Virus record (IMG/VR): IMGVR_UViG_3300025927_000001
DNA: 64,000 bases
DNA from: an uncultured virus (IMG/VR IMGVR_UViG_3300025927_000001)
Lineage: Duplodnaviria; Heunggongvirae; Uroviricota; Caudoviricetes
Reading direction: 5' to 3' (one strand)
The notes under the pieces are model-generated. The model was given only the letters and a program-made list of their open reading frames with translations. It did not search any database and was not told the origin of the DNA. Below are positions 22,280 through 54,280 of this stretch, piece by piece. The translations under genes were made by a program, and so were the position numbers. How positions within the stretch are numbered: the stretch's first letter is position 1; every line of letters starts with the position of its first letter.

Positions 22280-22606
22280 TCACCACCGGCGGGACGTCTG
22301 ATCGCCACCAGCTAGCCACGGTGAAACCCGCTTGCTAAGCCTCACCCTATTGCCCTCGACACTGTTACACCGCCGATGAGCAGGCACCAGATTCGCCGGA
22401 TCCAACGGGTCACCGCCCTCAGCCAAACCAACAATGTGGTGAGCGGTACCAGCCAACGGATGCAGATGCAGCACCTTCGTCATCTCATAGTTGATCGGCT
22501 GACCACACAACCAGCACGGCGTGTTATTCATCGCACCAGCGTGCATGCACTCGGCTTGAGCCCGCCGCCACCGGGAACCTTGACGACCAGGACCCTTGCT
22601 AACCAT
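22280..22606 (-). CDS. HNH endonuclease (packaging-associated, HK97 gp74-like)
   Basis: CWLCG…HHI…GG…NL.PAH..CN motif. Confidence 0.9.
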   Translation of the reverse strand: MVSKGPGRQGSRWRRAQAECMHAGAMNNTPCWLCGQPINYEMTKVLHLHPLAGTAHHIVGLAEGGDPLDPANLVPAHRRCNSVEGNRVRLSKRVSPWLAGGDQTSRRW

Positions 22607-23214: not shown

Positions 23215-23417
23215 CTATAATGACCCGTGATCCTGATTGGATCCTGAAGCAGGATTGGCTAACGCATTGTTTCGCGTGTTCGTCGGTTACTAGTGGCATT
23301 TTGGATGAGTGTCCGGTGGATCCGTCTCATTCAGTGAATGTGATCGACGGGCAGAGCCCGGATTTCCAGGCGTGGGTGTTGGCTCGTCGTGCTGCGGCTG
23401 CGGCCCGCCGGAATTAA
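23211..23417 (+). CDS. Small hypothetical protein
   Basis: ATGA overlap with EndoVII-like gene. Confidence 0.55.
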   Translation: MTIMTRDPDWILKQDWLTHCFACSSVTSGILDECPVDPSHSVNVIDGQSPDFQAWVLARRAAAAARRN

Positions 23418-23425
23418 CGCGTACC

Positions 23426-23674
23426 TCAGTTCACGGGTACGGCGATGGTGGTCCAGTAGGCCAGCTTCTTGCGCAGGATGGGCGCGCACATCGTGATCTT
23501 GCCGTTCTCGACGACGTACCCGGCGCAGAGATAGCGGGTAGTGACTTGGTGGAGACCATCGGTTAGGGTGCCGGTGGTGGTGGTCGACCTCGCGTGAACG
23601 GGAGGCAGCGCACTCGGCGGGGTTTCGGGTGCGGGCACAATGTCCGATGTGAGTGCAGGTTTGTAGTCCACCAA
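23426..23674 (-). CDS. Hypothetical phage protein
   Basis: GGAGG RBS; GL.QVT..Y.CAG.V…CAPILR motif. Confidence 0.6.
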   Translation of the reverse strand: MVDYKPALTSDIVPAPETPPSALPPVHARSTTTTGTLTDGLHQVTTRYLCAGYVVENGKITMCAPILRKKLAYWTTIAVPVN

Positions 23675-23698
23675 CTGTCCTCCCGGCCACCACCGCTA

Positions 23699-23974
23699 TG
23701 CGGCGTAGCTCAGTGCGTAGAGCGCTCGGTGCATGGCAAGCGAACGGTTCCGGTACCAACCCGCTTGTGGTGGGCCGGGAGCTGCATCCAGCGCCGTCCG
23801 CGGCGACCCATCGCCGCAGCCGCCTCGGGATCGGCAAGCAGGGTCGCTACGGCTTCGAGTTACCGCCGCTACCTCACGACCGTTGACCAACTCGCTGCGA
23901 TGACCAGCGGACCCAGAGTATGCCCCGGTTCTCTGACCGGCGGGAGGACGCAGGTTCAACTCCTGCCGCCGCAG
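23699..23974 (+). ncRNA. tRNA-framed RNA with ~210-nt structured insert (tmRNA-like or intron-containing)
   Basis: Acceptor TGCGGCG/CGCCGCA, D stem GCTC/GAGC, T arm GCAGG-TTCAACT-CCTGC; halves separated by an ORF-poor structured insert. Confidence 0.8.
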
Positions 23975-23979
23975 CTTTT

Positions 23980-24384
23980 TCAGTGAGTCACTGGTAGGTG
24001 TTCTTCCACTACGACCGGCGGTGGTGCTGGCGCTGGTTCCACGATCACTTGCGGGGCGGGTACCACGGTTTTGGTGATGATGATCGGTGGGGGCGGTGGT
24101 TGGGTCACGATCGACGTGACTGCCACGGGTGGTGGTGTCGTTGTCGTCGGTGCCGGGGTCGTTGTCGGCGCTGGAGTTGTGGTCGGTGGCGGCGTGGTCG
24201 TTGGCTTGGGATGACATTTCGCTTCGTCATCGTCGCCGCCGACAGCTTCTTTCGAGTGGTCGTGGCGTGTGCAGTCATCGCCACCACGACCACCGCCACC
24301 TGCGTTTGCGGGTGATGCGCTGGTTACGAGGATTCCCGCGGTGACAACACTGGCGGCGAGTAGCGCAGCGTAACGAGGACGCAA
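23980..24384 (-). CDS. Secreted Pro/Thr-rich protein ending LPVTH
   Basis: Signal peptide, PTTTP repeats, AAGGAG RBS. Confidence 0.7.
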   Translation of the reverse strand: MRPRYAALLAASVVTAGILVTSASPANAGGGGRGGDDCTRHDHSKEAVGGDDDEAKCHPKPTTTPPPTTTPAPTTTPAPTTTTPPPVAVTSIVTQPPPPPIIITKTVVPAPQVIVEPAPAPPPVVVEEHLPVTH

Positions 24385-24502
24385 GTCGGGTCTCCTTGAA
24401 GATTTAGAGCAGTTTCGCTTGGAGGATGACGAGGGCGAAGGCGATCTCGAATGCGAGCAGTTTCGAGTAGATCTCGATCATCTGCGGCACCCGTTATGTG
24501 TT

Positions 24503-48703: not shown

Positions 48704-48922
48704 CTACGAACGCCCTCGAATCGCCGGGTCGTCAGGCGGGTGCTCGTTTTCCCAGACTGTCGGGTCTCCGCCCAGCGCTACCCAGACCCGCTTCTGATCT
48801 TCACGGGAACGCGCACCTCTGAGTCCAGACATCCAGCGTTGCTCCGCCGGGACGAGCCGCAGCGGCTCGGGATTGATCACAAGTCGCCGAACAGCTTGAT
48901 CATCGTCCATGTCAGGGATCAT
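48704..48922 (-). CDS. Hypothetical protein
   Basis: Overlaps integrase stop. Confidence 0.5.
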   Translation of the reverse strand: MIPDMDDDQAVRRLVINPEPLRLVPAEQRWMSGLRGARSREDQKRVWVALGGDPTVWENEHPPDDPAIRGRS

Positions 48923-50025
48923 CCTAGGTTCGCTTGTGAATCACTAGGCCCGAACGCATGATTGACTACAGCGGCTAGGCGTCCTGCTCCAGCGTGGCGC
49001 ACATAACCCATCGTGGTCTCGATGTTGCGGTGCCCGAGGATCTCCATGATCTCAAACGGATTGGCGCCTGCCTCGGCCAGGATGGTGGCGCAACCGTGGC
49101 GCAAGTCATGCCAGGTGGGTTTTTCGCCGTCGATCGCAGCCAGTTTCAGTGCGCGATCCCACTCGTCACGGATCCTGGTCGGGCGTAGGTGCTGACCAGT
49201 GCGCGGGTTGGCGAACACAGGGGCGAGTTTGCCTGCCACCGCCTGGTCGCGGACGTGGTGATCTAGCGCTGCGACAACACGAGGACTCAGCGGCACATTG
49301 CGGATGGTTTTGGATTTAGGGTAACGCCGCAAACGGCCATCAACGTCGATGATGTCGATGACTGTGACCTTGCTGTGGAGCAGGTTGAGGTTACACATCC
49401 GCAGTCCGCAGATCTCGCTGATGCGTAGTCCTGCGTCGTGGCTAAGTAGCGCTGCTGGCCACAGCCATCCGGGCAACGCGGCCAGCAGTAACATCAACTC
49501 CTCGTCGGTGAGGATCCGGGGCTGGTGCTCGTGCGGCTTCGGACCCTTGATCCCGAGGGTGGGGTCGTCGGGGCGGTAGCCAGCTTTGATCGCGGCGCGC
49601 ATGGCGTGGCGCAGCACCGTCAGGCGCACGGTGCGGGTGCCGGTGCCTTTGCCGTCGTCACGCAGCTCGGCGAGGTAACCGCGGACCATGATCTCGGTGA
49701 TCTCGTCGACGCGCTCAGTCGACCAACGTGCGGCCAGCGCCCGGGCGTGGCCCTGGTAGCCACACCGGGTGGACAGCTCGGCGTCGAGGACGCCGAGCTG
49801 CGCCCACCCGGTGACGTGCTCAGCGAAGCTGGGGATGCCTCGCCGCTGGCGGGCAACGTCGATCCCAGCGGTGGTGTAGCTGGAGTCCTCATCGCGTTCT
49901 TCTTGTTTCCACCACGCGTCGGCGTCGGACCAGCGGATGAACGTCTTGCTCCAGCGGCGCCCGGTGATCGCGTTGCGGGCAACGCCGCGATGGTTACCGG
50001 ACGGCAAACTTTCTACCCAACCCAT
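48919..50025 (-). CDS. int: Tyrosine integrase
   Basis: GLRISE, PKS, HDLRH, LGH…TT..Y catalytic motifs. Confidence 0.95.
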   Translation of the reverse strand: MGWVESLPSGNHRGVARNAITGRRWSKTFIRWSDADAWWKQEERDEDSSYTTAGIDVARQRRGIPSFAEHVTGWAQLGVLDAELSTRCGYQGHARALAARWSTERVDEITEIMVRGYLAELRDDGKGTGTRTVRLTVLRHAMRAAIKAGYRPDDPTLGIKGPKPHEHQPRILTDEELMLLLAALPGWLWPAALLSHDAGLRISEICGLRMCNLNLLHSKVTVIDIIDVDGRLRRYPKSKTIRNVPLSPRVVAALDHHVRDQAVAGKLAPVFANPRTGQHLRPTRIRDEWDRALKLAAIDGEKPTWHDLRHGCATILAEAGANPFEIMEILGHRNIETTMGYVRHAGAGRLAAVVNHAFGPSDSQANLG

Positions 50026-50672
50026 GATCTTGGAACCTCTCGCTACGTAGCGCACGCGCGGCGTTCCAGTGGGGAAACCTAGAGCGGTAGAGGTGGGCGT
50101 GTCCAGTCAGATGGTGATCTTCTGGGGCAAGTGGTTCCCCACGGCCTCGTTTGCGAGTTTCGTGCCGCGTCTTGAGTACGGCACTTGACCTGCTCAAACA
50201 GTCCATCCGAGACTAGCTACGACCACGACAACCGCGTTTAGGCTCCTTATAGCGGGCCGGGTGCGCTGACCTGGTGATTTACCGGTCCGAGGCTGTCACC
50301 TGCACCGTTGACTGTCAAGCAGCACCACATAGCGTCACCATGTGCCATGCGGGTGTCACGCAGCGTCCGACAGTGAGGCACCCGCCCCATGGTGTCCCCA
50401 TTGCTGTTGTATGCTGGCGTCGCTCCGCAATGGAGTTGCTCATCGAGATGCGGCAGGGCAAGTCAGGCTGACCACTTAGGGTAAGAACTTGAGATAGCGC
50501 ACTGGGCTGGGTGCGGGTGCGGGTGCTTGTTCCCTGTTCTTGAGGTCTCTGATGCCGTGCCGGCGAGTTCGTTCCGGTCCCCCCACCAAATCCAGCTGAA
50601 GTGATCAAGCAATGACCGACGGCAGCTTGACGTCGGAACACCCACGCGACTCTCATCGAGCGAGGAATCCCA

Positions 50673-52740: not shown

Positions 52741-52746
52741 AAGGCG

Positions 52747-52827
52747 TGCGTCGTCGTCTAGTGGCCTAAGACACCGCGCAGCATGGGGCTTGGCGCGGCA
52801 ACGCTGGTTCGAATCCAGCCGACGCTC
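52747..52827 (+). ncRNA. tRNA-like RNA with enlarged, non-decodable anticodon arm
   Basis: GCGTCG/CGACGC acceptor, GTCT/AGAC D stem, GCTGG-TTCGAAT-CCAGC T arm; CCGCGC/GCGCGG stem closes 13 nt. Confidence 0.75.
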
Positions 52828-53364
52828 GTGATCGCAACACCAGTGTTGTACCTCGACATCGACGGCACCGTCCGCCACGGCTTCACCGAGCTAGGGAAGT
52901 TCGTCAACGGGCCCGACGACGTCGTGATTTTCCCTGAAGCGCTGGTGATGATGCGACGGTGGAAAGCCGGTGGCGGCCGGATCATCGGTGTGTCCAACCA
53001 GGGTGGGATCGCGTTAGGTCACGTCGACGCGACGGAATGCGCCGCGGCGATGGCACGCACACAGCAACTCGCTGAAGGGCTTTTCGACTGCATCCAGGTG
53101 TGTCCGCACCACCCGCAGGCACCTCATCCGGAGATGTCCCGGTGCTGGTGCCGGAAACCAGCACCGGGCTTGGTGATCGAAGCGGCGCTCGCGCTGAGGG
53201 GTCACAATGGCAACGAGGAGTTTTATCCACCGTATATGTCGCTGATGGTCGGTGACCGACCCGAGGACGAAGAATGCGCCCGTATCGCGTCCATTGATTT
53301 CCAGTGGGCGTCTGAGTGGCGGGAGCAAGCCGGGTCATATGAACAACCAGCCAAAGACGACTAG
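52828..53364 (+). CDS. HAD-IIIA phosphatase (GmhB/PNKP-phosphatase-like)
   Basis: DIDGT, VSNQGG, CPHHP…C.CRKP.PG, MVGDR.ED. Confidence 0.88.
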   Translation: MIATPVLYLDIDGTVRHGFTELGKFVNGPDDVVIFPEALVMMRRWKAGGGRIIGVSNQGGIALGHVDATECAAAMARTQQLAEGLFDCIQVCPHHPQAPHPEMSRCWCRKPAPGLVIEAALALRGHNGNEEFYPPYMSLMVGDRPEDEECARIASIDFQWASEWREQAGSYEQPAKDD

Positions 53365-53703: not shown

Positions 53704-53848
53704 GGTGCCAGCGGCGTTTAACAGACGCAGTCATGTTGAGGAGCCGTGCTCTGCCGTTTGAGCTACGACCGCACGTGGTGGAGCGGTCGGCGGGACTCGA
53801 ACCCGCAACCCCGAGTCTTCTTCGCTGCGTCCGACTTGATCTGGCACC
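53704..53848 (-). ncRNA. Circularly permuted tRNA-like domain 2 (Y RNA/YrlA-like)
   Basis: Order T arm, CGACCGC-TCCACCACGT-GCGGTCG closed acceptor, D arm GCTC/GAGC; enclosed by GACGCAG/CTGCGTC and GGTGCCAG/CTGGCACC. Confidence 0.8.
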
Positions 53849-53868: not shown

Positions 53869-54030
53869 GGAGCGAGAGTTTCAACCTGATGACGTGAACC
53901 CTTTGCCTCTACCGGTTGGGCAACTCGGGCTAGTGTGTCGCGTTTCCGTGCCCGAGGGAGGATTCGAACCTCCACTGGAAGGGTCGCTTTCGCCAGCTTG
54001 AGTGTCAGCTTCAGTCTTAGCTTGCGCTCC
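53869..54030 (-). ncRNA. Circularly permuted tRNA-like domain 1 (Y RNA/YrlA-like)
   Basis: ACCCTT, T arm GGAGG-TTCGAAT-CCTCC, CTCGGGC-loop-GCCCGAG, D arm, AAGGGT; ends pair as GGAGCG/CGCTCC. Confidence 0.8.
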
Positions 54031-54208: not shown

Positions 54209-54280
54209 CTCTCCTGCCAGGATTCGAACCTGAACTACCGACACCAAAGGACGATGTGCTGCCATTTACACCACAGGAGA
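54209..54280 (-). tRNA. tRNA-Gln(TTG)
   Basis: TCTCCTG/CAGGAGA acceptor, loop CTTTGGT, T loop TTCGAAT; one T-T mismatch in anticodon stem. Confidence 0.85.

Follow-up and report, generated by a model that had tools for sequence, protein, structure and literature searches.

A tRNA-framed gene with a long insert in its anticodon arm in an actinophage genome

Genomic setting and anatomy of the element

The analysed DNA, a stretch of 64,000 nucleotides referred to here as the window, has a G+C content of 61% and derives from a soil actinophage or prophage with portal, prohead protease, tail tube, Lsr2, tyrosine integrase and other genes. A tRNA-framed gene was read on the plus strand at positions 23699-23974. 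It occupies a gap of ~305 nt between two minus-strand genes and is antisense to both. The left neighbour, P0001 (23426-23674, minus strand), encodes a protein of 82 aa from a TTG start, with a strong ribosome-binding site and a third-position G+C content of 0.78. The right neighbour (23980-24384, minus strand) has, according to its translation, a signal-peptide-like start and a Pro/Thr-rich body. Pfam searches returned no family for P0001, the Pro/Thr-rich ORF or three other neighbours.

As read from the sequence, the frame is made up of an acceptor stem of 7 bp together with D and T arms. The 5′ strand of the acceptor stem, TGCGGCG (23699-23705), pairs perfectly with CGCCGCA at 23967-23973; the 3′ strand ends in the discriminator G at 23974, and CCA is not encoded. 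The D arm (23708-23723), recovered both by reading and by ARAGORN, is formed by GCTC (23708-23711) and GAGC (23720-23723) around the loop AGTGCGTA. GG is absent from this loop, which argues against a normal tRNA elbow. The variable region AGGAC (23945-23949) precedes the T arm GCAGG-TTCAACT-CCTGC (23950-23966), of which the window has a single copy when up to 3 mismatches are allowed. Five consecutive T residues (23976-23980) follow the gene and reach into the stop codon of the ORF on the minus strand at 23980-24384. An initial annotation, made from the sequence alone, had listed the acceptor stem, the discriminator G, the D stem without GG in its loop, AGGAC, the T arm and the T run, and each of these was confirmed in place.

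The remnant of the anticodon stem can be paired in two registers. In the register chosen by ARAGORN, TCGGT of the 5′ strand CTCGGT (23725-23730) pairs with ACCGG at 23936-23940. In the register obtained by reading, CTCG pairs with CGGG at 23941-23944, so that the 3′ strands together span 23936-23944. With introns allowed, ARAGORN called the element "tRNA-Glu(ctc)" with a 198-nt intron at 23731-23928 (plus strand), followed by a residual loop, TTCTCTG, at 23929-23935. The insert is flanked by a 4-nt direct repeat, CGGT, at 23727-23730 and 23926-23929, and its inverted ends extend to at most 5 nt (GCATG/TATGC). The proposal of the initial annotation that about 200 nt stand in for the anticodon loop of a tRNA-framed gene, and that this gene is located in a phage, was thus borne out.

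Both ARAGORN in default mode and Rfam left the element uncalled in the window, where they found 4 and 3 other tRNAs, respectively. When ARAGORN with introns allowed was applied to 20 dinucleotide-shuffled windows, it made 2 tRNA calls in total, one of them with an intron. Since shuffled sequence gave so few calls, the tRNA frame is real, beyond chance.

The whole RNA folded with an MFE of −125.0 compared to a shuffle mean of −120.3 (z = −0.81), and 37 of 200 shuffles were equally good. The forced cloverleaf cost 2.6 kcal/mol in the fold calculation. The insert alone gave z = +0.78 over 300 shuffles, slightly worse than shuffled sequence. Internal pairs described previously (GCAAGCG/CGCTTGT, GCGGCGA/TCGCCGC, GGGTC/GACCC and CGAGTT/AACTCG) are indeed present; however, they do not exceed what chance provides at 65% G+C. 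Covariation offers no help, since every known copy of the insert is identical. A permissive Rfam scan of 481 nt returned three matches, all with E ≥ 2, and none of them was a tmRNA, a group I intron or a ribozyme. The scan of 23300-24500 for promoters and terminators yielded 0 sites of either kind, so that the five-T run was not called a terminator.

Comparison with a related phage and origin of the insert

Exact-pattern scans of viral contigs located the gene in two contigs. One of them (G001) is 100% identical over 481 nt and represents the same phage as the window. The other (G002) is a 79-kb contig rated 93% complete, in which a 73-nt insert-free gene (locus L003, 1460-1532) lies next to a P0001 homolog. 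The Rfam tRNA model matched this gene with 55.9 bits against a threshold of 29. ARAGORN reported it as "tRNA-??? (gc)", with a two-base "anticodon" and a 6-nt loop, CAGCGG. The anticodon stem of the G002 gene is CCGGT/ACCGG, from which the T and the CGGG of the window's stem are absent. The D stem is the same in both genes, and the D loop of G002, AGTGCA, has 6 nt and is 2 nt shorter than that of the window. The discriminator is followed by an encoded CCA, and the five-T run is absent.

In G002 the tRNA-like gene is abutted by an HNH endonuclease gene (L003 1534-1869, minus strand). The window homolog of this gene, 73% identical, is found at 22283-22606 (minus strand), 1.1 kb to the left and past an endonuclease VII gene; its displacement indicates that the neighbourhood was rearranged around the tRNA-like gene.

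The tRNA body itself is unchanged between the two phages. Its 3′ part is identical at 33 of 33 positions according to BLAST, and the alignment of its 5′ part contains zero substitutions. In total, ~65 aligned positions, with the acceptor stem and the variable region among them, are the same in both, compared to 76% identity in the adjoining 299 nt of flank. At the rate of change seen in the flank, the calculated chance of an unchanged body is roughly 0.76^65, of the order of 1e-8. In the alignment, a short diverged spacer lies between the body and the conserved ribosome-binding block of P0001; the body is therefore a conserved island rather than a piece of a single recently exchanged segment, which fits selection acting on it.

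The differences between the window and G002 genes are confined to the D loop and the anticodon arm, and consist of three indels (GT, T and CGGG), the unrelated loops and the insert. In this pair of sequences, the body is thus conserved and the anticodon arm is not. The loops TTCTCTG and CAGCGG differ, so the two alleles share no agreed anticodon, and neither has a usable anticodon loop. The arrangement of a canonical decoding tRNA, a 7-nt loop on a 5-bp stem, was found neither in the window element nor in the G002 allele. As the body shows zero substitutions between the two lineages, there are no compensatory changes to back a fold.

A body without change next to an anticodon arm that varies freely is the pattern expected of a non-decoding tRNA mimic, which makes this the best reading. 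We see an even chance that the gene is such a mimic with a tolerated, lineage-specific insert.

The source of the insert was sought in several sequence sets. It has no counterpart anywhere in G002, where the best match covered 31 nt (E = 0.0085), and no second copy was found in the window, in G002 or in the phage collection ("distant" search, 481 nt). A MITE or other small mobile element would be expected to have terminal inverted repeats, a target duplication and several copies; against this expectation, the insert shows the 4-nt CGGT direct repeat, inverted ends of at most 5 nt and a single copy in these sets. Contigs of four DNA runs over 23300-24500 contained only identical pieces of the phage, with no variant and no insert-free form; the same runs also held one unrelated tRNA with a similar T arm. 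Conservation of the insert in homologs had been set as a test in the initial annotation, and the only homolog lacks the insert, which counts against the idea proposed there. Descent of the insert from the HNH gene next to the G002 allele was also considered and rejected, as tblastn places the homolog at 22340-22606, outside the insert. A phage integrase attachment site was rejected as well: the integrase gene lies 25 kb away, at 48922-50055, and the 24-nt 3′ end of the element occurs in only 4 of the scanned species genomes, none of them actinobacterial. One piece of the insert, 23767-23781, is an inverted near-copy of the adjacent leader (14/15). The leader segment in question, CTCCCGGCCACCAC (23680-23693), is complementary to it over 14 bp plus one bulge, with a score reached by 3 of 2000 shuffles and by 4 of 1972 other window pieces.

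These data also bear on the alternative that the gene is dead, i.e., that an ancestral tRNA-like gene was recently broken by ~199 bp of unrelated DNA through illegitimate recombination between short repeats and is now functionless. The CGGT direct repeat at both ends of the insert, the absence of the insert from G002, its lack of structural signal and of matches to any RNA family, and an inverted near-copy of the kind left by template switching are all consistent with such an event, and the identity of all insert copies suggests that it may be young. However, several separate events besides the insert (the T indel, the CGGG indel and the unrelated residual loop) fall in the anticodon arm, and uniform decay should not concentrate changes in this way. 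Furthermore, the G002 allele does not decode either, and whatever role the body has could therefore survive an insert in the loop. We regard a dead gene, the main rival reading, as possible, though unlikely.

Minus-strand, tmRNA and intron readings

A regulatory role of the minus strand was suggested by complementarity between the element and the translation start of P0001, and would be compatible with the mimic reading. The region would then work as the 5′ leader of P0001, in which the complement of the tRNA variable region masks the ribosome-binding site. The Shine-Dalgarno region of P0001, GGGAGGAC (23677-23685, minus strand), has a perfect 9-nt complement at 23941-23949, and the site is paired with a probability of ~0.98 in the predicted minus-strand fold. 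The minus-strand fold of G002 pairs an equivalent 7-nt complement, and the leader piece repeated within the insert supplies a second complement. However, masking needs only 7-9 nt and leaves unexplained ~65 unchanged nt with a plus-strand tRNA consensus of 55.9 bits. The motif GGAGGAC may recur simply because ribosome-binding sites and tRNA variable regions are both purine-rich, and the comparison was made after the repeat had been seen. We therefore consider a working minus-strand leader improbable.

The minus strand also contains a 173-aa ORF (23696-24217) that is open across the whole element, is called by gene-finding programs and is recorded for 4 contigs as a predicted protein. If the region coded for this protein, its tRNA shape would be incidental. 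However, G+C by codon position is flat (0.65/0.65/0.65), and the only match to the protein among 204 candidates was the protein itself. In addition, the overlapping frame at 23980-24384 looks like the real gene, and the tRNA frame is kept in G002, where the 173-aa ORF is absent. A protein-coding origin is thus highly unlikely. A protein search with a 130-aa ORF on the plus strand returned no matches.

A tmRNA-like hybrid had been put forward in the initial annotation. The alanine identity pair of tmRNA is G3-U70. Direct reading of the element gives C3-G70 instead, and the accompanying claim of a non-alanine identity was correct. The hybrid itself was not supported. Its general architecture, with tRNA ends around a long middle part, is that of a tmRNA-like molecule, and its 3′ end resembles those of tmRNAs; in locus L032, a sequence with the same 22-nt T arm looked by eye like the 3′ end of a tmRNA. 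However, ARAGORN made no tmRNA call even at a lowered (80%) threshold, and the Rfam tmRNA model gave no match at E ≤ 10. The element has a full D stem, and C3-G70 takes the place of G3-U70. The 39-codon frame described earlier, from GCA at 23784 to TGA at 23901, does exist as part of an ORF at 23733-23903, but it is not coding-like: its G+C by codon position is 0.70/0.72/0.60, without coding bias, and the frame ends in ...TNSLR and not in a tag-like sequence. At the position of the conserved internal domain of tmRNA, the only relative (G002) has a 6-nt loop and hence lacks a middle part altogether. That the element is a rescue RNA of tmRNA type carrying a non-alanine amino acid is extremely unlikely, and this reading is already close to refuted.

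The other proposal made initially was a self-splicing intron. Considered more widely, the insert could be an undescribed kind of intron, self-splicing or protein-dependent, the removal of which would leave a tRNA with anticodon CUC. At the junctions given by ARAGORN, T 23730 precedes the 5′ junction and G 23928 is the last base of the insert. According to the available text of a preprint (Williams 2020), a T (U) before the 5′ splice site and a G at the intron end are typical of group I introns; the agreement counts for little, since only two bases are constrained. Phage tRNAs with unexplained "introns" have also been published (Devoto 2019, PMC6784885). However, the search of 481 nt with permissive filters and with the Rfam Intron_gpI model alone gave no match at E ≤ 10, and the junction would fall on a stem/loop border. 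Only one exon join yields a 7-nt loop, TTCTCTG; its product carries a pyrimidine at position 37, its variable region measures 9 nt, and two bases separate the D and anticodon stems, with one base in excess ahead of the latter. In the insert-free allele, the 6 nt of the loop are unrelated in sequence, and no structural signal was detected in the insert. An intron of any such kind is very unlikely. In summary, the element is not a tmRNA, nor can a group I intron be recognised in it, and its annotation as a tmRNA, an intron-bearing tRNA-Glu or a 173-aa protein should be avoided.

A putative non-decoding tRNA mimic and comparable RNAs

Under the preferred reading of a non-decoding mimic, selection would keep the upper tRNA body, with its acceptor stem, its D stem, the T arm and the variable region, and leave the anticodon arm free to change, to a 6-nt loop in G002 and to an insert of ~200 nt in the window phage. 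The RNA would be produced from the plus strand, probably as the tail of rightward transcription running antisense through P0001. RNase P may cut the 5′ end and the 3′ end may be trimmed; CCA would need to be added, as it is not encoded. The acceptor/T-arm half could then act as a tRNA mimic, serving as a ligand or decoy for a tRNA-binding factor of the host or the phage. The insert is most likely a tolerated passenger, not a working domain. Several observations speak against the mimic reading: the scan found no promoter-like site, the gene runs antisense to both neighbours, only two lineages have it, the unchanged body offers no compensatory changes, and its D loop lacks GG. In the case of a very recent insertion, conservation of the body would attest only to a function that preceded it.

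In a more elaborate version, the gene would be a natural "tRNA scaffold". A small group of actinophages would keep the anticodon-less body as a frame for processing and stability, with the anticodon slot used for exchangeable cargo, here a 205-nt RNA whose segment 23767-23781 pairs near the P0001 ribosome-binding site. The locus would thereby combine a tRNA mimic made from one strand with a translational switch of P0001 from the other. This version is speculative and decidedly unlikely.

Should the body prove to be a working mimic, the poorly understood non-decoding tRNA look-alikes of phages would gain an actinophage example. The 6-nt loop and the 205-nt insert on an otherwise identical body would provide a natural contrast showing which part matters, useful for finding the partners of such mimics, e.g., tRNA-processing enzymes or tRNA-directed defence nucleases. 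If the gene is only broken, it illustrates the ordinary mosaicism of phage genomes.

P0001 is a member of a widespread phage family of very small proteins, with 52 related viral loci. The family core of ~47 aa contains the motifs VTTRYLCAG and CAPILRKKLAYW and has no Pfam family. The N-terminal extension of P0001 occurs only in the two lineages that carry the tRNA-like gene, and the extensions of these lineages differ by indels that are not multiples of three. Carriers of the gene amounted to 2 of the 52 viral loci with a P0001 relative, these being the two known lineages only.

Sequences related to parts of the frame were found more broadly. A full tRNA frame was detected by script in 62 of 118 viral loci with the 5′ motif, and 14 of these 62 had no canonical anticodon arm; the remaining 56 loci, in which the 3′ half was not found by the criteria used or in the fetched flank, stand outside this ratio. 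Among the 14 non-canonical frames, the window insert is the largest. By these scripted readings, tRNA frames with altered anticodon arms recur in phage DNA, which fits the "enigmatic introns" of Lak phage tRNAs (Devoto 2019). The 24-nt T-arm/acceptor sequence, on the other hand, is rare and was found in 5 metagenome contigs and 4 species genomes. Its matches fall into three groups. L048-L051 are ordinary genes for tRNA-Asn or tRNA-Gln that lie in tRNA clusters, L046 is the window sequence itself, and L044, L047, L045 and L052 are tRNA-shaped genes with anticodon-loop inserts of 35-58 nt, all four of which exceed the Rfam tRNA threshold.

Several of these loci showed features of their own. L044 (816-925), L047, L052 (1004-900, minus strand) and L181 form a tRNA-shaped subfamily with an extended anticodon arm, in which the conserved borders TTTYCGAC and TATGGG enclose a variable hairpin. 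One member of the subfamily lies in a Burkholderiales genome bin and one in a viral contig. In L044 and L052 the upstream gene encodes HTH_36 and DnaD_N domains. An AAA ATPase gene is located downstream of the insert-bearing tRNA-shaped gene in L045 (1024-900, minus strand) and L052, and L045 has short TGTGGA-type repeats just upstream that resemble replication-origin iterons. Four viral contigs of 142-233 kb from one sample set (L017, L024, L026 and L028) contain tRNA-shaped genes with short D loops and "anticodon loops" of 10-15 nt on a CGCA/TGCG stem.

The window itself has a second tRNA-shaped gene at 52746-52828 (plus strand) with an oversized "anticodon loop", in which the stem CCGCGC/GCGCGG encloses 13 nt. 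ARAGORN in default mode called it tRNA-Ala(agc) and, with introns allowed, tRNA-Lys(ctt) with an 8-nt intron. It had no Rfam tRNA match and scored 21.9 bits (E = 0.25) with the tRNA-Sec model. Further along, two tandem matches to the YrlA model were obtained at 53718-53834 (minus strand; 41.8 bits, E = 2e-7) and 53883-53996 (minus strand; 25.8 bits, E = 0.009), neither of which reaches the 69 bits set as the family threshold. A tRNA-Gln gene (54209-54280, minus strand) lies beside them. These matches call for caution, as 11 of 14 control genomes also yield sub-threshold hits with the model. A Ro60 (TROVE) gene was not seen among 131 ORFs of the window, and counterparts of its 52.6-54.4 kb region and of the YrlA-like RNAs were not found in G002.

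YrlA-type Y RNAs (RF02553) are tRNA mimics described from bacteria and mycobacteriophages (Chen et al. 2014, PMC4201824). Like the element, they do not decode and keep the D and T arms of a tRNA, and according to the available text one of them has a 6-nt "anticodon loop" (PMC4201824). However, YrlA RNAs are circularly permuted and adjoin the Ro60 gene (PMC4201824), whereas the ends of the window element form an acceptor stem. Applied to the element, the YrlA model RF02553 gave 13.6 bits (E = 7.8) against the threshold of 69 bits, which is noise.

With tmRNA (SsrA, RF00023) the element shares tRNA-like ends that enclose a long internal region, as well as a similar T-arm sequence. It differs in that it shows no G3-U70, model match, tag frame or conserved pseudoknots, and in having a full D stem. 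The resemblance to group I introns that interrupt genes for tRNAs lies in an insert of similar size in the anticodon region, with T before the insert and G at its end. In contrast to them, there is no model match and no canonical spliced tRNA, and the loop of the insert-free allele disagrees.

A literature search returned nothing specific on the same kind of element in actinophages. Among described phage genes, the tRNAs of Lak megaphages with "enigmatic introns" (Devoto et al. 2019, PMC6784885) are comparable in that, as the available text describes them, their inserts are unexplained, were found by allowing introns, and are present in some relatives and missing from others. However, they belong to other phages and hosts, and anticodons have been assigned to them (PMC6784885), whereas the window and G002 genes have no working one. 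The sister gene in G002 occupies the same place beside a P0001 homolog, agrees fully with the window gene in acceptor stem, D stem, T arm and variable region, and is likewise non-decoding by its sequence; it differs in its 6-nt loop in place of a region of ~205 nt, its shorter D loop, its encoded CCA and the abutting HNH gene. The element is a new actinophage variant of the loosely known phage tRNA look-alikes with altered anticodon arms.
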